Assembly: GCA_002269645.1 (NCBI GenBank)
Contig: NIVC01000254.1
Location: forward strand, 496,001-560,000
Source of the DNA: Macrostomum lignano
Taxonomy: Eukaryota
Direction: 5' to 3'
Length of the DNA stretch: 64,000 bases
The translations under genes and the position numbers were made by a program. Below the pieces are notes generated by a model, which was not told the origin of the DNA, did not search any database, and was given only the letters and a program-made list of their open reading frames with translations. Position 1 is the stretch's first letter; every line of letters begins with the position of its first letter. Below are positions 67 to 15,109 of the stretch, one piece after another.

Positions 67-136
67 CAAGGACTACTTAAGTATCGTTTATAGAAGGACG
101 CTGCACTCGCGGTTCGTGTAATTTTTTTTGAAGGCC
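67..136 (+). repeat. P-element left terminal inverted repeat (carries a 9-bp insertion)
   Basis: Matches the reverse complement of 5022-5082 apart from an extra TCGTTTATA and a few inner mismatches. Confidence 0.9.
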
Positions 137-1138
137 AATTTTCGCCGAAAAATACATTAACGAGATACAAAAAATTCACGATTTTCATCTTCAATGGCTT
201 GCTCAGACTGACTACAACCCTGCTGAAAAGAAAAAACTGCTGAAACTTATCAAAAAGACCTAGTGTATTCGCTCCTCTATTGTATTTCGCCAAGTTAGTG
301 TCCTTGACACGTTTACTTTTAAATACTTCGTATTTTTTCGAGGGTTTTCAATTCTGTAATGTTAAATGTTAAAGGTTGGATTAAAGTGTTAGTTTCTCTC
401 AATAATCAGTAGTTTCTTTAGCATTCTATGATGACTGCTTTCTATGTCTTTATTTTTTTGGTAAATTTAAATTAGCTATAGACATTCTATATTAAATGTT
501 AGTCTATACCCTGGCTATGCCTGATATATAATAATATCTAGGGCCTACTATGCTTTTTTAGCATGTTCTACAAAAATGTTGTGTAGAAAGGACCTACTGA
601 TTAGTTTATGAGTAGATCGTTATAAAGTATTATTCTTAATTTGAAGGTAGATAGATATTAGATACTTGCATATTGTATAGAAGGTACTAATTTTACTATT
701 CTGTCAAATATCTGTAGATTAGGCTTCTTAAACGGTTCTACTGGATACAAAAGTTCTATTTTCAGACTTGTCTTGAAACTTTATATTTTATTTAAATGAT
801 AGGCCTAACAACATATTGAATTTATTTCTGCTGTTTGGAGAGCAGTTTTTTAACCTAGTCTAGTTTAATGGAACCAAGATATATTCAATACTCAGGCCTT
901 GCATTGAATTTAAAATATAAATATTTATATATAGAAAGTGATTCTAAAGGAAAATGCGTATAATAGACTTTAGAAGACAAATTTTCAACTTTAGTAATAC
1001 TATTGAAGTGATTTAGTATAGAATTGATTATATTGGCCTGTTGGGATAAAAGCAATACAGTATTGTAGCAATTTTTTTACTAGATATAATGTATAGAAGC
1101 TGTATATATTTCTTTTTGTTAGCTTCAGAATTTCTGCA

Positions 1139-4073
1139 ATGCCAATGAAATGCTGTCTTCCAAAGTGTACAAGTAACTACAAATCTGGTGAGAAGGTGAC
1201 AGTGTATAGCTTTCCAAAGGATAAAGAAGACTACAGCATGTGGATCCGAGCTTTGCCACCAAATGTTAAGGTATGGTGCTATTGCTGCTATTGCATATTC
1301 TTGTCTTGCTTAATTCACATGCTAATGGAACATTAGTACAATATGATATAATACTTACTGTTTTAGAGTCCATCTAAATACATGGGCATTTGCCAAAAAC
1401 ATTGGCCAACAAATGCACCAATGTTAAAGGTCAAGCGATTCATGCGCCCTATGGACCCACCAAGTGTATTCCCAAATCTTCCAACAGGCTCTCTTCGCCT
1501 GACTGAGCCAAGTAAGTATATCTCATAGCAAGGTTAAATATTACAGTTTGTACCAAATGATAGGCTTTCTATAATATTTTACTTAATTAAGTTTTTGTCT
1601 GATTTCATACCTTACATATTATTATTCTTACTTCAGAGCACTCTAGAGATGTTCAACGCCGCGGTATTCTGTTAAACCAGCGGGCTCAAATTGCTGATGA
1701 AATGGACTCATTCAATGAGACTGATCGGATTCACTCATGGAGTTCCTTTGTTGAGAAATCTGCCACCCTTGACTTCGTTGCAAATGAGTGGATAGTGCAG
1801 CGTGACGAATCATGTGTGCGATTTGTCCTTCTTTGGGAACTAAGAGTTGAATGCTCAATTTCAGTCATGTCCGACTTTTCTGTTATTGCAAATCGTCATA
1901 ACACCCCAGTGTCAGTGTCTGAGCTGCTGGGTTTTCAACATCGACTTGAGCGCTACAGCCAATTGGAAGCAGTACAAAATAAAGTTCGACAAGCTGAAGT
2001 AAATCCAATCAAGGAATTCAATGCATATTTGGACGCACTACAGCCACTTTGTCAGGAGCTGCAGAACCCGCGCCATTCATTCCTTGTTCGACAGCTGCAA
2101 CTGAGTGTTGTTCAGCATCATGGCGTACGGTATGCTGCAAATGATATAATGACAGCTGCCAGAATGTACTTCACCAGTCGTGCTGGCTATCGTGCAATGA
2201 GAGAGTTCGCCTGTCTACCACATCCAGACACTCTCAAACGTCATCTGGGTGGACTTGGCAGCATTGGAACCGACACCGACTGTCAGCAAATTGTCAAGTC
2301 GAATTTCGAACACAACACACCGTCTCAGTGCCTGTGCTCAATCATCTTTGATGAAGTGTATGTGCAACCTTCACTTCGTCTCAAAGGTGTCCATGTAGTT
2401 GGCTTTGCTGAGGATGTTCCACAGAAGCTTGCTCGGACTATTCTCGCCATTATGGTAAAACCATTTATGGGCGCACCTGCGTTTGTTGCCAGACTTGTGC
2501 CAATCTATAGTTTACAGCCTGCGTTTTTACACAGACAGGTTGTACGACTTATTGAAATTGTCCACGGCTGTGGTGGTACAGTTGTGAGCTTGATTTGCGA
2601 TAATCACTTCACTAACCAGAACTGTTTCAAACTGTTTCATTGCGACACAAACACACCATGGCTTGCCGAAAACCCTGCAGACGCAGAGAAACCATTGTTT
2701 CTGTTGTTTGACACAGTGCATTTGTTTAAGAATATAAGAAATAATTGGTTCACTCAAGCGCACAAGGAGATCGATTTTCACCCATCAGCAGATAAGCAGG
2801 AACGTGTTTGCCGAGCACGCTGGAATGATATTGTTGAAATCGAGGAGCGATCCCGTGGACAAGTAGTTCGCCCGACTTCAGTCAACTCTGTCGCGTGCAA
2901 TCCGTCTCCACTGGAGCGACAAAAGGTGTCACTAGTTGTCGACATCTTCAACGAGAAGACGGTTGCCGCACTTCGTGTTAACGGTCGCCATGACTCAGCC
3001 GACTTTGTGGACCATGTGGTCACCTTTTGGAAAATAGTTAATGTTAAATCACCAGAATCACACGTTGCCTTGAATGACAAACTTAGGGCTCCAATTACGT
3101 CGGAAGAATCTAGCAGCTTGACACATTTACTTAATTTCTCCGCACTGGTGGAGCGCATGCCGGGTGGACGAGGTGCGGGACGCGGTCGGTCGCTCACCAC
3201 AGAGACGCGCAACGCTTTAATCCAGACAACAAGAGGTCTGGTGGGCCTCAGCAGACACCTTCTAACCAACCATCGATTTTCTTACGTTCTTCTTGGTGAG
3301 TTCTTTGCATTATTTACATGCAGCAATCAGTTTTTGAATAATTGTTGCTAGGGAATGAATTTAATGAATTGTGGGGATGCAGGTCACGGCTATCTAATGG
3401 GTCACGAAATTGTCTTTAAGGTGTACTGCAATCAGACAGATTGGAGGCCGAGTTCGCTCTCTACCGCCAGGGCCACGGCGGGTGTTACTACATAACAGTC
3501 GAGCAAGTTATGGCCAGTGCTCGGCTGCACCGAATGAAATTGTACGGAGCGCTTCAGAACAGCTTTGAGGCTCATGAGCCGGCGACATGCTGTTCCGATG
3601 GGATGAAGGACTCTGATCTAGAGGTGTTTGATCAGCTTCAAGACAAGATCAGCCACAATACAGATGAGGAGAATGCTTCTTTGTACTATATTTCCGGTTA
3701 CGTTGCTGCTAAAGAGCATCTTCCAGAAGTTTTTGAAGCATTTGCAACTGAGTTTCCTGGCGGTAGCGAATTTACATCGCTGCTATCTCGTGGCAAGCTC
3801 CGGCACCCGCCAGAGTGGCTTTTAGTTTTCTCCAGCCTGTGCTATGCTTTTTTCTCCTCTGTCAAGATCCACTGCGTCAACTATTGTGTCCGATCTTTTA
3901 TTAACGTTTTTGAAGCTTTCATGGATGTAACTGTTTCAGATCCAGCTCAGGTTAGCCGCATTTCCAGGAGGTTAGCTAACACATTTTTTAAAGGACTCGT
4001 GCGTCGTGATTCGGACCATGTACGAGAGACGCCCGGCAGTGGACGGCGTCTGCGAAAGTTAGCATCAAGTTAG
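1139..4073 (+). CDS. P-element (THAP9-like) transposase, 4 exons: 1139-1270, 1367-1511, 1637-3295, 3421-4073 (about 862 aa)
   Basis: THAP C2CH zinc finger (CCLPKC...ICQKHW), catalytic IIFDEV, LICDN and QSDRLEAEF, and FDTVHLFKNIRNNW. All introns are GT-AG with compatible phases (0,1,1), and the spliced frame has no premature stop. Confidence 0.93.
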
Positions 4074-5021
4074 TTATGAGCTGTTTGTACGCTTTTTGAG
4101 AAATCCGTGACATTCTATCAACACACCGAGTTCGTATAAAACTTGAACACCCATTGTACACTTAGACACCTCTAATTTAAACAAACGAAGTGGACACTGG
4201 AAAATATCGAAATATCCAACCAAAAATGCAATAAGCCAAAATCGGAGGCAACATAGCTCGTAGAATTGAAGCGAACATTGTTAATTGATTGAGCATGTAA
4301 TTTGACCCATAGTCCATGGTTGTCCATGTTTTATACAGACCCAATTCACATTCACGTCATTGAATATGCTTATGCTTTCATAAGTTGGTTTATGCATCTG
4401 TTGCTGCTTTCATACGTTGGTTTAAACATTTGTTGCTGCTTTCATAAGTTGGTTTCTGCATTTTACTGCTGTTGCCTACCCAATAGTTGCCACAGTTTCT
4501 ATACACTATACACTATACACAGTCTTATATTTGCAGCCTTACATACATATTTGCCTTACTGTAGCTATCAATTGAGATTAAAGTACAATGAGCTGCTGTG
4601 CAACAAGCAACCAGTTCAGTTCAACATTTTTTGTTTCCAGTCCAACAACGATACATCGATTGTTATCAGCACTGGCATTGTGCCAGTTTCTCTGCTTTTG
4701 CTCTTTGTTATTTTATTGTTGAAAAGATCAGGGATGGCTTTTGAAAAGTACAGACTGACGGGCTTCGTTCTTTGTTAATCTCATCTCATTTTAATTGGAT
4801 TACATTAGCTCAATTGTCGGAATTATCCTTTAAATATCCTAGCTTTATTGTTCTATAATAAAGAAGGGGGTAACAGTACCTTGCTGTACATTTCTCGCGA
4901 ATACATGTAGTTGCAGCCGAAACTGTTCACTCATCTAAAAGAGGAATAAATTCTGAGCAACCCCGTGAAAAAACTAGACCTCTACATGCAACCATTTAAA
5001 AATAACAGCATTTTGAAAAAT

Positions 5022-5082
5022 GGCCTTCAAAAAAATCTACACCATTCGGGAGTGCAGCGTCCTTCTACTTAAGTAGTCCTTG
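5022..5082 (-). repeat. P-element right terminal inverted repeat
   Basis: Reverse complement reads CAAGGACTACTTAAGTAGAAGGACGCTGCACTC...TTTTTTTGAAGGCC. Confidence 0.9.
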
Positions 5083-5924
5083 ATACGATATACTTCTAAA
5101 CCAATGATTTTCTAGAAAATTCCAGCTTAGGTTTTTAGTTTTATCCACTAACTAGCAATTTCCAGTTTTTTTTTTACAATTAAAGGTAAAAACGTGGCTC
5201 CAAGACCAAGATGTCTACACACTGCATAGAGATAAACGCAAAAACTTTTGTCGAGCACCGATTGTGGTGCGGGGCATGGATGACCAGTGGGAACTGGACC
5301 TTGTTGAAATGCTGCCGTTCGCTAAGTACAATGGCGGCGTACGATATATTCTATGCTGCATTGATGTGCTCAGCAAGTTTGCCTGGGTTCAGCCAGTGCG
5401 CCGCAAGACAGCCGAGGAGGTTGCAGCCGGATTCGAAGCGATCCTAAATCGAGCTCACCCTCGATGCCCACGAGCAGTTCGGACCGACCGTGGAAAAGAG
5501 TTTTGCAACACCCAGTTCCGAGCCCTCTGCGTAAACCACAAAATTCATGCATTCACATCAAGTAGTGACCAGAAATGCGCAGCCATTGAGAGATGGAACC
5601 GCACACTGAAATCCCGAATGTGGCGGTACTTCCTTCACAAGTCAACATTAACCTGGACCGATGTGCTTCAACCCTTAGCAAAAGCATACAACCAGAATAT
5701 TCATCGGAGTATTCAAAGCCGACCAGTTGATGTCGACAAGTCAAACGAGATGGAAATTTGGCAGCGGCTTTACGATGGGAAGCTTCCTGAGACTCGTGAA
5801 AAGGTCTCCAGACCAAAGTTCAAGGCAGGAATGATGGTGCGAATCTCTCTTCGCAATCTGGCCAACCCATTCACCAAGGGATACACAAGGGGATGGAGTG
5901 AGGAAGTATTTGAAGTCAAGTCCC

Positions 5925-6185
5925 TCCACCCCAATATTGAGTAAAAATATGAAGAGCTGGTTAAAGAAAACTAAACCGACGCGGATGGTGCTACAATGGA
6001 ATACGGTCCCTGTTCAGCCCAGTTCGTCAACTCTATGCGGCTGGTATTGCATTTTTTACTTGATCCATCGACTACATAAGAGAATGTCATATAATGCCTT
6101 GTTCATCAAGGTTTTGCACCCGGCAGCTGTGGCTCAAAACGATGCAATCATACTCAGACTCAAAAATCAGTTGCAAGGTGTTTGA
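5925..6185 (+). pseudogene. Adenain-type (Polinton) cysteine protease, C-terminal fragment only
   Basis: WNTVPVQPSSSTLCGWYCIFYL contains the Q..S..CG.YC catalytic Cys motif and a downstream ND motif. The N-terminal His/Asp part is missing; the fragment abuts the integrase. Confidence 0.75.
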
Positions 6186-6801
6186 TTCCAGACTGCGGAT
6201 GGGAGGCTGCATGATGGTTTCGGGCCCTTCTCGAGCGGGAAAATCAACATTCTGTTTGCGGTTGCTGTCCCAACGACTGCTTCTGTTCGACCAACCTCCC
6301 AAGCGGATGATTTGGTATCACGGATGCCCGCAGCCGGAACTCCACACGACTCTGCGGCGGCTAGGAGTGCAAGTATGTGAAGGATTATCGAATTTGGATC
6401 TGCAGCCCCATGACCTGATTGTGATTGACGATTTACTGGATGAAGCAGCTGCAAGTCGAGAGCTACGACATCTGTTCACCCGTGAGGCTCACCACAAGCC
6501 CTGCTTTGTCATTCTCATCACGCAAAATCTATTTTTCAAAGGCAGAGAGTGGCGCACAATTAGCATAAATTGCACCTACATTGTGTTGTTCAACAACCCC
6601 AGAGACGCCTCTGCGGTCCAAGCTTTAAGTCAGCAATGCTTTCCCAAACGGCGCACTCTGCTAGTAGAACTGATGGATCGATTGGTGCGAGATGGAGATC
6701 AGCGCTATCTGCTGCTTGATTTTCACCCCGCTTCACCCCATGAACTGCGCCTGAGAGCCAATTTTCTCCCCGATGAGGCCCCGCAGCGAGTTTATCTATA
6801 A
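6142..6801 (+). CDS. Polinton/adintovirus A32-like (FtsK-HerA) genome-packaging ATPase
   Basis: FDSRL, Walker A GPSRAGKST, Walker B LIVIDDL, FTREAHH...ILITQNLF and RTISINCTYIVLFNNPRD. First in-frame ATG is at 6142. Confidence 0.92.
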   Translation: MQSYSDSKISCKVFDSRLRMGGCMMVSGPSRAGKSTFCLRLLSQRLLLFDQPPKRMIWYHGCPQPELHTTLRRLGVQVCEGLSNLDLQPHDLIVIDDLLDEAAASRELRHLFTREAHHKPCFVILITQNLFFKGREWRTISINCTYIVLFNNPRDASAVQALSQQCFPKRRTLLVELMDRLVRDGDQRYLLLDFHPASPHELRLRANFLPDEAPQRVYL

Positions 6802-7164: not shown

Positions 7165-7720
7165 GGCACTTGTGAATCAGAGGGGCATGGAGACAGTCTG
7201 TGAACCCGAGCTAGAGGCGGAAAAACGGTTGCGCAAGATTAGGGACGAGCGTTGCGTGCAGCAGCTGCAGGCAAGTGCGACCCAAGAACAGCCTCCAGTA
7301 ATTCACAAAGAACCGCAGTGGAAGGAGGTTTTATATCTGACGGTGAATCAGAAATGGCATCATCGTCTGCAGGCATTGATTAGCTTCATAACCGTAAAGT
7401 GCAAGTCGATTAGCATAGATGATACGTATGAAGTTTCTGTCAATGGTAAACCGTTGTACAACTTAAATATCGTGGACCTGCTGCATTTCATAGTTAAAGA
7501 TACGTACTCTAAGTACCTTCAGCCACCGAATGGGATTAATGAGTTTGTTACGTGTCTTCAAGAAAACCACGTGCCTCTGTCTGCAGTTGGTCTGAACACT
7601 ACAAAATTGCTGGAAAAGCCTCGGGAAGAAAAGTCTAGTCCTAAAAAACCTCGACTGCAAGACTATAAGAAGACTCAGTCTCAGAAAGGATACGGCAAGT
7701 GGATCAAGTGGCCAAGATGA
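7124..7720 (+). CDS. Conserved uncharacterised Polinton core protein
   Basis: N-terminal MILVP, then GKPLYNLNIVDLL...PPNGINEFVTCLQENHVP, which matches the remembered Polinton family pattern G..I.GSNI.DL...P.G...F...L...NVP. Confidence 0.7.
   Translation: MYKEMILVPRLQYEALVNQRGMETVCEPELEAEKRLRKIRDERCVQQLQASATQEQPPVIHKEPQWKEVLYLTVNQKWHHRLQALISFITVKCKSISIDDTYEVSVNGKPLYNLNIVDLLHFIVKDTYSKYLQPPNGINEFVTCLQENHVPLSAVGLNTTKLLEKPREEKSSPKKPRLQDYKKTQSQKGYGKWIKWPR
7664..7682 (+). promoter_or_regulatory. TATA-containing motif TATAAGAA-GA-CTCAGTCTC upstream of ORF 7717
   Basis: 53 nt before the ATG; shares 17 nt with the motif at 6797. Confidence 0.45.
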
Positions 7721-8538
7721 TTGTCATTGATTTTGAAGGATTTCCGCACCTCTACAAAACAGAGGACTTTGTGATTAAGGAAATTGCATGGGTTGAGTTT
7801 GCATGCGGTCAAACGACGGCTCATTACTATTGCTACCGACCGCCGCACAGCTTTGAGCTCTTTGATCGAGGACAGCGACGAACCTGCTACTGGCTCACCA
7901 ATAAGCGGCACGGTCTAGACTGGGACAGGAGTGGGTTCCGACCCTACTCTTGTCTCTGGAGCGATATCTCTCACTTGCAAGGCCCGATATTTAGCAAGGG
8001 GGATGTCAAGTGCCAGTTCCTGTCGCGTCTGCTGCTACAGCCTGTCTACGACCTCGCACACCTGGCCTTTCCGAGTGCCTCGAAGTACGTGCTACCCTAC
8101 GCCCTGGCCAAGGTGGCGCTGTACGCTGATTGGCTGCGGCCTCGCGGCTACGGGTCTATAAAAGTAGCGATCTGCAGCAGGCACTGGCATTTCTCTCGAT
8201 TGTCTAAAGATGGCCGCAGCAATTCGCGTAACAAACATCGTGACAGGAGCCGACCTGGCGACCCGGGTGGCTCTGCCACAACTAGCGAATTTCCTGACTC
8301 TTCATCTGCCTCAGTATCACACAATCCGCCATCGCCTGGTTCATCCTCGAACACTGGCTGTGGTGATGAAGAGCGGGCAGCATCGAGTAACCGCGCTGGT
8401 GTATCCGACCGGACAAGTGTCTGTCTGTGGAGCCAAAAGCATGGAGGAAGCTCTCGCAGAGACGGAGAAGATTGTGAAGCTGTGTGCGGACTTCTTGCGA
8501 TTGACCAGTCTGCCCCAGGTTCGCATCAAGACTATTAA
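7717..8538 (+). CDS. DEDD/DnaQ-like exonuclease-fold protein of the type found in Polinton-like elements; long tail overlaps the TBP-like ORF
   Basis: MIVIDFEGF...FVIKEIAW...RPP...WLTNKRHGLDW..G.RPY...SKG..K..FL. The recognisable domain ends near 8150; the rest is hydrophilic and low-complexity. Confidence 0.65.
   Translation: MIVIDFEGFPHLYKTEDFVIKEIAWVEFACGQTTAHYYCYRPPHSFELFDRGQRRTCYWLTNKRHGLDWDRSGFRPYSCLWSDISHLQGPIFSKGDVKCQFLSRLLLQPVYDLAHLAFPSASKYVLPYALAKVALYADWLRPRGYGSIKVAICSRHWHFSRLSKDGRSNSRNKHRDRSRPGDPGGSATTSEFPDSSSASVSHNPPSPGSSSNTGCGDEERAASSNRAGVSDRTSVCLWSQKHGGSSRRDGEDCEAVCGLLAIDQSAPGSHQDY
8129..8164 (+). promoter_or_regulatory. Putative Pol II promoter of the TBP-like ORF (inverted CCAAT plus TATAAAAG)
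   Basis: ATTGG at 8129-8133 and consensus TATAAAAG at 8157-8164, 53 nt before ATG 8210. Confidence 0.55.
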
Positions 8539-8809
8539 CTCTGTGACGGCCTTTCCCGCGGGTCGGCATCCACTCCGGTTGGGGGAAGTCAAGTCTAAAT
8601 GGCCGCATCGGGCCACCTACGAGCCGGAAATGTTTAACGGACTTGTGCTCGAGTTTACTGCCTCTGTAAAGTTGATTTTGTTTCATTCATATCGCTGTAT
8701 AATAGCTGGTGCTCGCAGCGTGGTTGAGGCTCAGACTGCAGCTGATGCCCTCTCCCGCATTTTGCTACCAGATCAAGCATCCGAACCTACTTTGCTGGAC
8801 TCTGACTGA
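8210..8809 (+). CDS. Divergent TATA-binding protein (TBP)-like factor, intronless, encoded inside the Polinton
   Basis: Two TBP repeats: IRVTNIVTGADL...TALVYPTGQVSVCGAKSMEEA and IKTINSV...YEPEMFNGL...LILFHS..CIIAGARS. These align with TBP NIV..DL, TALIF.SGK...TGAKS and YEPELFPGL...LIF.SGK..LTGAK. Confidence 0.88.
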   Translation: MAAAIRVTNIVTGADLATRVALPQLANFLTLHLPQYHTIRHRLVHPRTLAVVMKSGQHRVTALVYPTGQVSVCGAKSMEEALAETEKIVKLCADFLRLTSLPQVRIKTINSVTAFPAGRHPLRLGEVKSKWPHRATYEPEMFNGLVLEFTASVKLILFHSYRCIIAGARSVVEAQTAADALSRILLPDQASEPTLLDSD

Positions 8810-8859: not shown

Positions 8860-9238
8860 ATAATAATAATAATAATAATAATATTTTTCCTATAACTTTA
8901 CTTCTATATTTTTGTGTACAAAATATAAGAAAAAATAAACGCGAATGCGACTATGTTTGTGCAACAATGCTTACGAAAATGAAATGTTTTTTTTTTGTTT
9001 ATTTTATTGGCAGGTCCATGGATTGAAAAGCATAAAATTACATTTTAAAAGCTCGTATTAGCACAAAAAAGTTTATTAAGAATGGAAGGGCAGTATTAAG
9101 GCCCGTCGCCTGTATTTACAAAACAGTATTATCGCCCGGAATCAAAGCATGATGGGGCAATATTATAGCCAGTATTGACAAAGCAGTATATACAACAGTG
9201 CATGATCAGTACTATGGTTCAAAACTATATTAAAAACG
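8860..9238. terminator. AT-rich convergent 3' region with polyadenylation signals on both strands
   Basis: AATAAA on plus near 8934, TTTATT (minus-strand AATAAA) near 8998-9006 and 9072, and a (TAA)n run. It lies between the convergent TBP-like and PC4-side ORFs. Confidence 0.45.
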
Positions 9239-9514
9239 TTAATTGACGAAATGACCAGTTGTCGCTTCATGCATTGCGCGTCGCTTCATTGGTGGCTGGT
9301 GGAATGAAGGCTGTTGGTTCTTCTCAGCTGTTGGTGGCTCTTCCAGAGTTTCGGATGCAAATCTCTTTCTAAATTCAGCCTGAACTGCCTGGAAAGCCTC
9401 CCAGTGGTCGTCCCACTCTGCCGGCTGCCTGTCAGGTACTTGTATAAGTTGGTCGATTGTAAGCCTTGCTGCCCATGCTGCACACTCTTCAGGCTCCGTA
9501 GGGTGGTATCCCAT
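9239..9514 (-). CDS. Hypothetical 91-aa Polinton ORF (MGYHPTEPEECAAWAARL...)
   Basis: ATG-initiated with helical-looking composition; ends at the polyA region. No family recognised. Confidence 0.35.
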   Translation of the reverse strand: MGYHPTEPEECAAWAARLTIDQLIQVPDRQPAEWDDHWEAFQAVQAEFRKRFASETLEEPPTAEKNQQPSFHQPPMKRRAMHEATTGHFVN

Positions 9515-9927
9515 GGATCGCCGATCGGTGGCTTGACCGGAGGTTCTCGCTTGACAATTTTGTCTAGGACCCAATGCTTTTGAGCCCAGACTTCGCGCCA
9601 AAGTTTTGTAGGAAGCGGTAAGGCGTGCCTTAGGTGCACCGGCGGTCCGAGTACAGTTGGAAGGCGCCAGAGTGTGATTACGCCATTTTGCACAACCACT
9701 TGCCTGTTGCCACCCAGAAGGCATTGCGCATCGATACACTTTCTTGCAAACTCTTCCAGTCGTTCCTTCAGGCTGCCCAAGTGGCAAAACTGGTGGACGG
9801 TGAGCTCCATGCCAGGCAGACCTGGTCGATACTCTTCATCAAATTTGTACCACTTTCTGATGCTGATGCACTTCGAGTGCGACCTGACGCCGATTCGAAA
9901 TCTGTTCGATAATGTCTTGAAGTTCAT
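9286..9927 (-). CDS. Protein with two tandem PC4/Sub1-like (ssDNA-binding transcriptional coactivator) domains
   Basis: LSNRFRIGV...ISIRKWY..DEEYRPGLPGMELTVHQF..L matches PC4 IDIRE.W...GEMKPG.KGISL...QW..L. A second, weaker repeat is LGGNRQVVVQNGVITLW...ALPLPTKLWREV. Minus-strand TATATAA lies at 9967-9973. Confidence 0.7.
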   Translation of the reverse strand: MNFKTLSNRFRIGVRSHSKCISIRKWYKFDEEYRPGLPGMELTVHQFCHLGSLKERLEEFARKCIDAQCLLGGNRQVVVQNGVITLWRLPTVLGPPVHLRHALPLPTKLWREVWAQKHWVLDKIVKREPPVKPPIGDPWDTTLRSLKSVQHGQQGLQSTNLYKYLTGSRQSGTTTGRLSRQFRLNLERDLHPKLWKSHQQLRRTNSLHSTSHQ

Positions 9928-9995
9928 TTTGTTCACTGTGAGCTTTCCTTCCGGCTGTGTGCGAGATTATATACGACGAGAGTTGGTAAGTAACA

Positions 9996-10194
9996 CCAGC
10001 TCCCGCTCCATAGCAATAACCAATCCGAACCCCGAATCCAACCCCACACAACAGCCCTCTCACAGGAACTCTCGGCAAATCAGGAGCCCTTCCGGGGACC
10101 ACTCAGCCATTTAGAAACCAGCTCCTGTTCCATAGAAATAACTAATCCGAACCCCAAATCCAACCCCCACACAGCAGCCCTTTCGCAGGAACTC
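9996..10194. repeat. Imperfect direct repeat, two copies of about 77 bp (period about 122) in the Polinton subterminal region
   Basis: ACCAGCTCC..TCCATAG.AATAAC.AATCCGAACCCC.AATCCAACCCC...AGGAACTC at about 9996 and 10118. Confidence 0.8.
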
Positions 10195-10479
10195 GGGCCT
10201 TAACAAAGTCTCAGCCATCAACGTAACAGGAGGTGGCGGGACCTTCTTGCGGCCCTCTGGCCGCCAAGAAGTAGCGTTCTAGGTCTAACGACCTCACGCT
10301 GTACCCGCCACAGCAAGATACAGTACAACCAAAGCATGGAATGAGGGTTTTGCCTTGGCTAGCTTTAAAGGCGGTAAGTGAGACAGGTAATAAGACTTGG
10401 GTTTAGGAATTAGGAGGGGGAATTGGTTTTGGTTAGGGTACAGGATAGAAGGACCTTGCTACATGGGATGGGGCAAGGC

Positions 10480-10760
10480 GTAGGATAGGAGGGGGCCTTG
10501 GTATGGGATGCATGGGGTGCAGGACAGGAGGGGGTCTTGGTATGGGATGCACGGGGTGCAGGACAGGAGGGGTGTAGGACAGGAGGGGGTCTTAGTATGG
10601 GATGCATGGGGTGCAGGACAGGAGGGGGTCTTGGTATGGGATGCACGGGGTGCAGGACAGGAGGGGGTCTTGGTATGGGATGCACGGGGTGCAGGACAGG
10701 AGGGGGTCTTGGTATGGGATGCACGGGGTGCAGGACAGGAGGGGTGTAGGACAGGAGGGG
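10480..10760. repeat. 39-bp G-rich tandem repeat in the Polinton terminal region
   Basis: GGGGTGCAGGACAGGAGGGGGTCTTGGTATGGGATGCAC, about 6-7 copies. Confidence 0.9.
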
Positions 10761-10966
10761 GCCTGGTTTGGGGTCGGGGGTGGGTGCGTGGGTTTGGGGT
10801 CGGGATTGGGTGCGTGGCGGTGGTGGGTTTGGGGTCGGGGTGGGTTTGGGGTCGGGGTGGGTTTGGCGTCGGGGTGGGCGTCTTCGGGGCGCCCTCTCCC
10901 CTCATTGGCCGGGTGCCCCGGCCAATCCCGTGCGATGGCGGTAGAGGGTACCACTTTCCTACTACT
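10761..10966. repeat. Polinton right terminus (probable TIR) with G-tracts and a hairpin
   Basis: GGTTTGGGGTCGGGGTGG repeats, perfect hairpin ATTGGCCGGG-TGC-CCCGGCCAAT at 10904-10926, and terminal CTACTACT. Confidence 0.7.
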
Positions 10967-12070
10967 CTTATCAATCAGTCTCAATGAATGTTATCAATCA
11001 GTCTCACTGGATCTTATCAATCAGTCTCAATGAATCTTATCAATCAGTCTCAATGAATCTTATCAATCAGTCTCAATGAATCTTATCAATCAGTCTCAAT
11101 GAATCTTATCAATCAGTCTCAATGAATCTTATCAATCAGTCTCAATGAATCTTATCAATCAGTCTCAATCAATCTTATCAATCAGTCTCAATGAATCTTA
11201 TCAATCAGTCTCAATCAATCTTATCAATCAGTCTCAATGAATCTTATCAATCAGTCTCAATGAATCTTATCAATCAGTCTCAATGAATCTTATCAATCAG
11301 TCTCACTGGATCTTATCAATCAGTCTCAATGAATCTTATCAATCAGTCTCAATGAATCTTATCAATCAGTCTCAATGAATCTTATCAATCAGTCTCAATG
11401 AATCTTATCAATCAGTCTCAATGAATCTTATCAATCAGTCTCAATGAATCTTATCAATCAGTCTCAATCAATCTTATCAATCAGTCTCAATGAATCTTAT
11501 CAATTAATCAATCTCACTGGATCTTATCAATCTAACTGGATCTTATCAATCTAACTGGATCTTATCAATCTAACTGGATCTTATCAATCTCACTGTATAT
11601 TATCAATTAATCAATCTCACTGGATCTTATCAATTAATCAATCTCACTAGAATTCCATCAAACAATTTCACTGAATCTTATCAATTAATCAATCTCACTG
11701 GATCTTATCAATCTCACTGGATCCTATTAATCTCACTGGACTTATCAATCTCACTGGATATTATCAATCTCACTAGATCTTATCAATCTCACTGGATCTT
11801 ATCAATCTCACTGGATCCTATCAATCTCACTAGATCTTATCAATCTCACTGGATCTTATCAATCTCACTAGATCTTATCAATCTCACGGGATATTATCAA
11901 TCTCACTGGATATTATCAATCTCACTGGATATTATCAATTAATCAATCTCACTGGATATTATCAATTAATCAATCTCACTAGAATTCTATCAATCAATTT
12001 CACAGGATCTTATCAATCTCAGTGAATCTCATCAATCAGTCAATCTCATGCCTGGATCTCATCAATCAAT
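10967..12070. repeat. Host intronic minisatellite, 23-bp unit degenerating to about 19 bp
   Basis: TCTTATCAATCAGTCTCAATGAA tandem copies, then ATCTTATCAATCTCACTGG. Confidence 0.95.
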
Positions 12071-12085
12071 ATCCCAAAATCTCAC

Positions 12086-12423
12086 CTTGCCCCCTCTGCG
12101 TCCAGCGCCTGATCAGCGGTGGGTCCAAAGATCTTCGGAAACTGATCCGGGAGCAGCCGGCCCAGCACCAGGTTGGCATCCGTGACGGTCAGGGGGCCGC
12201 CTTTCCTGTAGCAGACCGGGCCGGGGTGCGCGCCAGCCGACTCGGGCCCGACGACGAACAGGCCGGAGCGGAAGAACAGGCGGGAACCGCCGCCTGCGGC
12301 CACCGTGTTGATGTCCAGCTGGGGGGCCTGAGATGTGAGATACATACATATAGATTAATATTAATATAGACAGACAGACAGACAGACAGACAGGCAGACA
12401 GACGGGCAGACAGACAGACAGGC

Positions 12424-12480
<57 letters not shown>

Positions 12481-12585
12481 GGCAGGCAGGCAGACAGACA
12501 CACAGACAGACAGACAGACAGACAGACACACAGACAGACAGACAGACAGACAGACACACAGACAGACAGACACACAGACAGACAC

Positions 12586-12636
<51 letters not shown>

Positions 12637-12639
12637 GGC

Positions 12640-12676
<37 letters not shown>

Positions 12677-12677
12677 C

Positions 12678-12708
<31 letters not shown>

Positions 12709-15109
12709 GGCAGGCAGACAGACAGACAGACAGACAGGCAGGCAGACAGACAGGCAGGCAGGCAGACAGGCAGGCAGGCAGACAGACCTGAATAGCCACT
12801 CCAGCAGTTGTAGTCTCGAACACGTGCTCCAGCTGGCCATCGAACCTGCTCACATCGGTGCTGGTGCCGCCCATGTCGAAGCCAATGACTGGCGCACCGC
12901 CCGCCTGTCGATGCGTTGTCAGGGCGTAGCCGACCACGCCGCCAGCTGGACCAGACAGAATTGCTCGGGAACCGTTGAATCTGAGGTTATCGATTGACAA
13001 CGGCAAGTTCTCATGTGCACATAGGTGTACTATATCATATCTCATGTGTACTCACTGATGTCAAGTGTACTCACTGATGTCATGTGTACTCACTGATGTC
13101 ATGTGTACTCACTGATGTCATGTGTACTCACTGATGTCATGTGTATCACTGATATTATTTGTACTCACTGATGTCATGTGTACTCACTGATGTCATGTGT
13201 ACTCACTGATGTCATGTGTACTCACTGATGTCATGTGTACTCACTGATGTCATGTGCACTCACTGATGTGATGTGTACTCACTGATGTCATGTGTACTCA
13301 CTGATGTGATGTGTACTCACTGATGTCAAGTGTACTCACTGATTTACTGGCGCAAGCCCGCCGTCACTCTGCATAAACAGTACCTTTAAATTCTAAAAAT
13401 AAAAGTACATGGATGAAAATCAATTAATAAAACATTTTTATTTTTTGTAAAGTACAACAAAAGTACCCTTGTCTGACCTTTAAACCTCCAGCGAATCCGG
13501 ACGCAAATCCTTCGATGTACTTATCGATGCACGGCGTCAGGTAGGCGTCCGCACAGGCTGTGTGACCACGCGGAACAGCCCGAACCATCTGCATCACTCG
13601 GTGCGACAGGGACACCTGGATACGTGCATTGCAGTGGGTGAGTGCGCTGTGTTACGGAGGCAAACCTAAAACATTGTCAGCGATTTCTAATGATCTGACA
13701 TTACCAGAACGATGTCAGATACAACCCAGCGACTTTACTGACATCACCTGGCACACCTGAATGATGTCAGATCCAACCCAAGCTGTCAGTGACCCTACTG
13801 ACATCACCTGACACACCTGAATGATGTCAGATCCAACCCAAGCTGCCAGTGACCCTACTGACATCACCTGACACACCTGAATGATGTCAGATCCAACCCA
13901 AGCGGTCAGTGACCCTACTGACATCACCTGACACACCTGAATGATGTCAGATCCAACCCAAGCTGCCAGTGACCCTACTGACATCACCTGACACACCTGA
14001 ATGATGTCAGATCCAACCCAAGCTGTCAGTGACCCTACTGACATCACCTGGCACACTTGAATGAGGTCAGATCCAACCCAAGCTGTCAGTGACCCTACTG
14101 ACATCACCTGGCACACTTGAATGATGTCAGATCCAACCCAAGCTGTCAGTGACCCTACTGACATCACCTGACACACCTGAATGATGTCAGATCCAACCCA
14201 AGCTGTCAGTGACCCTACTGACTTCACCTGACACACCCGAATGATGTCAGATCCAACCCAAGCTGTCAGTGACCCTACTGACATCACCTGACACACCTGG
14301 ATGATGTCAGATCCAACCCAAGCTGTCAGTGACCCTACTGACATCACCTGGCACACTTGAATGATGTCAGATCCAACCCAAGCTGTCAGTGACCCTACTG
14401 ACATCACCTGACACCTGTCAAAGAGTTGCCTAAGAGTCAATTTACGAGCTATTTGAGACTTTTTATTGTCTGCAACTCTGAAACGAATCTTAGGCGTGTC
14501 AGAGTTGTTTTGCATTTATAACAATAACAACACTATTTAGTCTACTTGAGTTAGTAGACAGTAAAGCGCTACCACAACGACTATTGGACGACTTTTTCAG
14601 GGCCGTTTGAGTCGTTAAAAAGTCACAAGTCTCCCTAGATTCGCCAGAGTCAATAGTGACTTGTTTGCAATGACTCTGGCGATTCTTGTCACGGTAACGC
14701 TTTCAACGGGTACTAGTCTATCTGCAATCTTCTACCTGGCTAAACCCGAGTTTTTCAGCCAGTTTGCCGGCGGCCAGCTCGTGCTCCGGGTACAGGTAAG
14801 AGTGCAGAAACAGCACGGCTACGCAGCGAATGCCGTCAGCAAGAAGGCTGGTCAGTTCGGTGCGCAGCGACTCCATGTTCAGCGGCTGGCTGACGTGGAC
14901 AGACTCCCCAGTGACACCGGTGGCCAGGGGGCCGGGCTGGGGGTCCAAGCGGCAGGAGGACGGCTGGGCCAGCAGGACTCGTTCGTCAACTTCGATGACG
15001 CGTTCGTACAGCATCTCTGGCATGGAGATTGACTGGGAGAGGAGAGAGGAAGGCTGAGGGTAGACAGACAGACTGGAACTCTAACAGACAGACTGGAACT
15101 CTAACAGCC

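Follow-up and report, generated by a model that had tools for sequence, protein, structure and literature searches.

A tandem PC4-like gene beside the terminal inverted repeat of a Macrostomum lignano Polinton: a candidate single-stranded DNA-binding factor with a promoter link to the polymerase gene

PC4-like proteins bind single-stranded DNA and unwind duplexes without ATP, and those in which the dimer is formed within one chain are classed as type I, according to the available text of PMC7549692. Human PC4 and fungal Sub1 are homodimers, and in human PC4 an N-terminal SEAC/K-rich region regulates coactivator activity, as set out in the accessible part of PMC9409219. Viruses also make use of the fold. 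The phage T5 homologue (4bg7) is a single-repeat homodimer implicated in DNA replication, which is recombination-dependent in the portion of PMC7549692 that deals with it, and not protein-primed. Tandem PC4 in one chain is likewise found in green-algal proteins (P0013, P0016, P0034), cellular by source name, although these contain three or four well-conserved repeats and match the protein described here mainly via its repeat 1.

Among viral proteins the closest by structure is MOSUB of a Branchiostoma lancelet adintovirus (UniProt A0A5H3CIS2). In the available portion of Starrett et al. 2021 (PMC8502044) MOSUB exists as a map label only, absent from the main text; in Supplementary Fig. S2 the label adjoins the ITR at the end opposite PolB, and other maps of the same figure carry SSDBP labels. 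Adintovirus maps, in other words, already name a gene of this type, though it is uncharacterised. Within the literature as accessible, no description of tandem PC4 in Polintons was found, a statement on which the unreadable slides of Starrett Fig. S1 may bear. PC4 appears together with Polintons there only as a cluster label, the partial texts of PMC11071296, PMC11071308, 10.1101/2023.08.22.554363, PMC11131425, PMC8363768 and PMC11662393 hold no relevant mention of PC4 or MoSub, and the available text of the bioRxiv version of Starrett yields nothing relevant under TBP and ssDNA terms.

The window analysed here is a stretch of 64,000 nucleotides of M. lignano DNA (contig NIVC01000254.1, positions 496,001 to 560,000), to which all coordinates refer unless a locus is named. 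As the sequence-only reading had claimed, a minus-strand PC4-like ORF lies at 9286..9927; it is 213 aa long and matches PF02229. A decayed Polinton ends with this gene, which faces inward from the terminal inverted repeat (TIR). Polintons are recognised by TIRs together with a target-site duplication of 5-8 bp (10.1101/2023.08.22.554363, in its available part), and here the right TIR (9935..10966) measures 1,034 bp, is 99.7% identical to the left TIR, found upstream of the window at L054 4287-5319, and is followed by the 6-bp duplication CTTATC (10967..10972), which is also present at the left end. A pPolB ORF of 1,236 aa (L054 5378-9088; PF03175, E 6e-12) follows the left TIR, and the Polinton integrase (5276..5944, plus strand; rve match) is present too, though truncated in this copy. 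This copy also lacks some 2.2 kb after the integrase, a stretch that in a sister copy contains the capsid and protease genes; the protease of sister copies matches PF00770, and the genes recognised there as capsid genes are named by position and sequence, without a Pfam match. A packaging ATPase-like ORF (6094..6801, plus strand) has been kept. The INT...TBP block ends with a TBP-like gene (8210..8809, plus strand; PF00352, E 7e-20), which has a TATAAAA at 8157. Among named proteins its nearest relatives carry the label M. lignano, in agreement with a flatworm host.

Several features around these genes deserve separate mention. Between pPolB and integrase sits an unrelated P-element/THAP-type DDE transposon (91..5067; PF21787) with 53-nt inverted arms and transposase ORFs split into 1702-3351 and 3510-4073. 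The TBP-like gene is overlapped, in both of the families described below, by a plus-strand ORF (7717-8538 in the window) that has no Pfam match and whose equivalent in L012 and L024 continues in frame into TBP; its N-terminal motif we take to be DEDD-like, and it may be the counterpart of the MAEL label on adintovirus maps. Exon-like pieces of a probable host gene, presumably a 5-oxoprolinase/hydantoinase judging from motifs, flank the element on the minus strand (12082-15023), such that the element appears to sit in an intron of that gene.

Matches to the PC4-like gene elsewhere in the genome (150 scored of 268 candidates, which are not copy numbers) form two families, that of the window and a larger sister family; between the two, identity is about 25-30% in PC4 and 36% in TBP. 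Extra PC4 and TBP Pfam matches were considered as a second Polinton lineage and rejected, the matches in the 20 stretches checked being decayed copies of the same families or apparent host genes. Two mini-elements with TIRs, L049 7503-8836 (1.3 kb) and L035 790-3293 (2.5 kb), have the PC4-like gene as their only recognisable ORF and are probably internal-deletion derivatives. In L023-L025 (G000:C862, about 327800-339500) a PC4-like gene lies inward of both TIRs and there is no pPolB match. Sister-family elements also contain, between left TIR and pPolB, a Cys/His-rich ORF that contains repeats (L042 5243-6565, L052 6092-7519, L053 8810-9721), which has its own TATATAA in two of the three.

The tail of the 213-aa ORF was considered as real protein and rejected, since the tails of three independent database homologues (P0004, P0005, P0009) align with another frame of the window copy (E about 1e-20) rather than with the ORF's own tail; residues ~140-213 are off-frame with respect to homologues. 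The original tail coding (9239..9511, minus strand) is now part of another ORF, 9239-9724, and specifies a conserved acidic helical tail with a basic end. The frame was shifted by a short deletion on the minus strand, at approximately 9511..9515 by comparison with sister copies, which is common to L002-L004 and sets the window apart from 14 of 25 alignment rows, some of these rows being the same copy twice. Among the 20 best loci the 213-aa form occurs in four, the window included, a 145-aa form in six and one of 228-236 aa in six, the other four being otherwise altered. Unbroken sister copies encode about 231 aa, for which a helical tail domain is predicted (helices 148-196). The two-repeat domain ends at about residue 126 and is intact in the window. 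What the copy has lost is the tail, and the element around it is decayed.

Of the one clear and one weaker PC4 repeat that had been proposed, the first is borne out directly. Repeat 1 (aa 1-60; 9748..9927, minus strand), a PC4/Sub1-like beta-sheet plus helix, resembles human PC4 and fungal Sub1 (PF02229; 1pcf, 6ycs, 4bhm) by profile (E 7e-7) and by structure. Pfam matches it at aa 6-50 (E 5.6e-5, 23 bits), with the window protein scoring 23-24.6 bits across runs against a curated cut-off of 25; all nine family members match PF02229 (best E 8e-10), the sister-family member L033 scores above the cut-off at 26.8 bits, and many genome copies exceed it. The Arg and aromatic residues aligning with the I-R-E-Y-W strand of PC4 are retained, and the window family has a shortened loop in this repeat. 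Repeat 2 (aa 61-126; 9550..9747, minus strand) comes from the structure model and is invisible to PC4 profiles. It is degenerate in sequence, with Pro at the position of the repeat 1 aromatic in a register set by eye, and it was detected neither by Pfam nor by a generic PC4 profile, nor by hhalign against repeat 1 (probability 2.5%). A profile alignment running through both repeats (109 columns) to the metagenome contig L142 gives E 1.2e-4 and a probability of 55%, such that repeat 2 is supported by the model and, weakly, by this alignment. L142 itself encodes, at 175-852 on the plus strand, a tandem PC4 protein of 225 aa with two Pfam repeats, upstream of a Polinton ATPase.

Purifying selection acts on repeat 1 and repeat 2 of the Polinton domain alike, with dN/dS of 0.05-0.23 in the seven of 14 comparisons that had unsaturated dS, the remaining seven being saturated. 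Most branches stayed unresolved when a tree was built from 35 single repeats (59 columns); its L142 rows were poorly cut, and it was set aside. Word-indexed protein searches gave only 6, 2 and 9 relatives; an Atlas search gave no lead for the tail and, for the domain, only PC4 leads below 0.9; a first metagenome scan gave no match; and in viral contigs the queries PC4, TBP, pPolB and ATPase had a single weak match, L085, which lies on a tailed-phage-like contig and was discarded as a relative because it looks spurious.

AlphaFold, run on a 9-sequence alignment, predicts two sheet-plus-helix repeats in one chain (pLDDT 89, pTM 0.80), with repeat 2 completing an intramolecular dimer. Residues 1-126 are thus predicted to form a type I PC4-like domain, and the model departs from the single-domain homodimer (type II) architecture of PC4/Sub1. 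This agrees, at the level of prediction, with the single-chain PC4 pseudo-dimer and the PC4/whirly fold anticipated by the sequence-only reading. The whole 126-aa model aligns with Pur-alpha repeats I-II (3k44; Z 10.8, rmsd 3.9, 117 residues, with Z 11.1 for a model from a second alignment), with MRP1/2 (Z 7.6) and with Whirly (Z 6.2), all treated in PMC7549692, and with the phage T5 homologue at Z 5.2. Residues 2-64, in essence repeat 1, superimpose on human PC4 over 63 residues at rmsd 1.3 A, and the top 10 rows of a Foldseek search of the PDB are all PC4/MoSub1, none of them reaching E 0.001. Identity to Pur-alpha, MRP1/2 and Whirly is about 10% and the Polinton protein has no Pfam match to these families; the sequence affinity to PC4 suggests a duplication independent of theirs.

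The best viral structural match is MOSUB (E 1.7e-4, TMq 0.62, 177 columns), a protein of similar size (203 aa) and 15% identity, followed by a weaker match to a Drosophila-associated adintovirus 2 protein (E 7.7e-3). A single repeat gives a lower TMq against MOSUB, about 0.46, and MOSUB is therefore probably tandem too. In this comparison by structure the gene shares with MOSUB both a PC4/MoSub1-like fold and the character of an adintovirus accessory gene near the ITR.

With respect to human PC4 the protein differs at both ends, and it is Polinton-encoded, the host's own PC4 being a separate gene (L132). The PC4-like domain begins at residue 2-6 of the protein, leaving no N-terminal SEAC/K-rich region, and a C-terminal acidic tail is present instead. 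The domain is basic (net +5 to +11), and the tail in unbroken copies is acidic (net -2 to -13) before a basic stretch at its end. A basic core with an acidic tail is the typical pattern of phage single-stranded DNA-binding proteins (SSBs). In the sister family the tail has a further feature, in that all 11 tails (L026, L029, L031, L033, L045, L047, L051, P0001-P0003 and P0007) carry, after the basic cluster, a C-terminal L-x-R-[QLH]-x-[AT] motif that is found also in the unrelated L142 protein and which we take to resemble a CaMK/Chk-type kinase pseudosubstrate.

The TATATAA that had been assigned to the PC4-like gene as its own is present (9967-9973, minus strand), 46 nt before the ATG, but it is not specific to this gene. 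It is part of the TIR, set back 39 nt from the inner end of that repeat, and its twin in the other TIR precedes pPolB; the idea of a PC4-specific box was accordingly dropped. The same spacing holds in 30 of 30 loci (30 examined of 42 matches), with the PC4-like gene downstream in 24 and pPolB in six. By way of comparison, about 0.011 TATATAA per 120 nt are expected in five sister-family element bodies, and 11 of 14 PC4-like loci have a TATA[AT]A[AT] in the 120 nt before the gene. Since the box sits in the TIR before both genes, PC4 and pPolB have identical upstream DNA. This link between the PC4-like gene and the polymerase gene through a TIR promoter is new; in the available text of Starrett et al. 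no shared TIR promoter is described for the MOSUB element, unlike the window family. The sharing is specific to the window's family, because sister-family TIRs are short (about 145-600 bp), their TATA lies outside them (in all three elements that could be followed to both ends), and at the end opposite PC4 a different ORF, not pPolB, comes first. PC4 is still the inward-facing terminal gene in that family, usually with a TATA. As to expression, no locus holder is on record as RNA, and contigs of four runs guessed to be RNA cover genes, TIR and spacers alike and are uninformative on this point.

Taken together, the reading that we favour, with a probability of roughly 0.55, is that the protein is the element's single-stranded DNA-binding factor in protein-primed, strand-displacement replication, one of two roles that the sequence-only reading had offered and one which gains support from the TIR promoter shared with pPolB. 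It is favoured because the TIR-borne TATA is common to the two genes, because the basic domain is joined to an acidic tail and lacks the N-terminal region of PC4, and because the fold is predicted, selection is purifying and MOSUB lies beside the ITR opposite PolB. In such a scheme the two promoter copies would co-express polymerase and binder early, and the binder would coat or melt displaced strands and hairpin or panhandle intermediates. Features that may serve ssDNA or RNA binding are the basic domain and the conserved Arg and aromatic, the latter confined to repeat 1; the degenerate repeat 2 may be mostly structural, which would leave one main DNA-binding sheet, as in MRP1/2. Against this stand the family-specific nature of the promoter sharing, the loss of the PC4 aromatic from repeat 2 and the lack of a PC4-like gene in L152 (12.8 of 13.8 kb), by which the gene is not universal in Polintons; moreover, a shared fold alone shows no function.

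The other proposed role was that of a partner of the TBP-like gene, on the ground that the two genes converge across a shared polyA region. The convergence is real, and AATAAA occurs back to back in the spacer as candidate polyA signals (8934..9077; 8934 on the plus strand, 8998 and 9072 on the minus), but a 476-nt spacer of 67% AT should hold about 0.6 of them on each strand, so that the signals by themselves are not above chance. Nor is the arrangement conserved. The window family has the order TIR-pPolB>INT...TBP> <PC4-TIR, whereas all eight sister-family elements that span both genes have TIR-PC4>INT...TBP> <pPolB...TIR, with PC4 codirectional with TBP, ~6.7 kb away from it where a single locus contains both, and TBP converging on pPolB. 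The adjacency in the window therefore follows from the orientation of the INT...TBP block, whose last gene, TBP, converges on whichever gene follows, and convergence was rejected as evidence of a PC4-TBP module.

What survives of a partnership is the unlikely, though still serious, possibility that the protein is a transcription cofactor which works with the viral TBP-like protein, directly or via host TFIIA/TFIIB, to open TATA promoters for host Pol II. TFIIA and TFIIB are partners of PC4/Sub1 (PMC9409219, in its available part), and TATA boxes of the element stand before PC4, pPolB and TBP. PC4 and TBP occur together in all the examined elements that cover the block in full, a pattern as compatible with transcription as with replication, and both genes are kept in the two families despite the divergence given above. 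This co-retention is, however, a matter of common descent in one lineage and amounts to a single event. Outside this genome, 21 metagenome loci found by ATPase, most of them fragments too short to show absence, include one with PC4, one with TBP and none with both. The informative outside loci, which are incomplete, hint at independent distribution of the two genes: L142 has tandem PC4 and no TBP in 3.2 kb, and in L146, covered for 14 of 27 kb, TBP and TFIIB are present and PC4 is not. In L146, an unrelated Polinton, the TBP-like (PF00352, E 1e-16) and TFIIB-like (PF00382, E 1.4e-8) genes are adjacent (10517-11763, minus strand), between the integrase and the major capsid gene. That pairing can also be turned in favour of a cofactor, since no TFIIB was found by Pfam in the scanned ORFs and PC4 could fill its slot; similarly, the acidic-then-basic tail could replace the N-terminal region of PC4 in reverse order. 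On the adintovirus maps, TBP is unlabelled in the text of Fig. S2, where MOSUB is labelled, and is named in the available parts of that paper only in the main-figure legend, for non-animal elements (PMC8502044). A complex prediction for the TBP-like protein and the 231-aa sister protein, run without alignments, scored 0.00 and is evidence neither way.

Less probable again, and in our view doubtful, is a broader role as nucleic-acid chaperone, in the manner of Pur-alpha or MRP1/2, in which the protein would anneal or melt TIR ends in excision, hairpin formation or integration, or bind element RNAs, with a tail that may act on host kinases: the closest whole-domain folds in the model comparisons are these type I proteins that bind DNA and RNA, sister-family PC4 is directly upstream of the integrase, and the pseudosubstrate-like motif ends the sister-family and L142 tails, but in sequence the protein is akin to PC4/Sub1 rather than Pur-alpha, and the motif is absent from the window's own family.

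A role as replication SSB thus remains the preferred reading. A speculative extension, to which we assign a low probability, is that the TIR is a duplicated early promoter for polymerase and PC4 binder, and that the binder, acting with the TBP-like protein, links the melting of promoters to protein-primed replication on one and the same terminal DNA. If true, captured Pol II factors would here make up a minimal viral switch between transcription and replication.

The question that this gene addresses is how Polintons protect their displaced single strands and drive their own promoters, one for which the accessible literature on Polintons, ssDNA binding and protein priming offers phage papers and one network analysis only. 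The element of surprise is limited, in that adintovirus maps already bear a label for such a gene and the window copy is broken. The family nevertheless provides a candidate SSB that is small, modelled with confidence and available in many natural variants, and whose defined promoter also serves the polymerase gene by position, so that the question is open to test with purified proteins.
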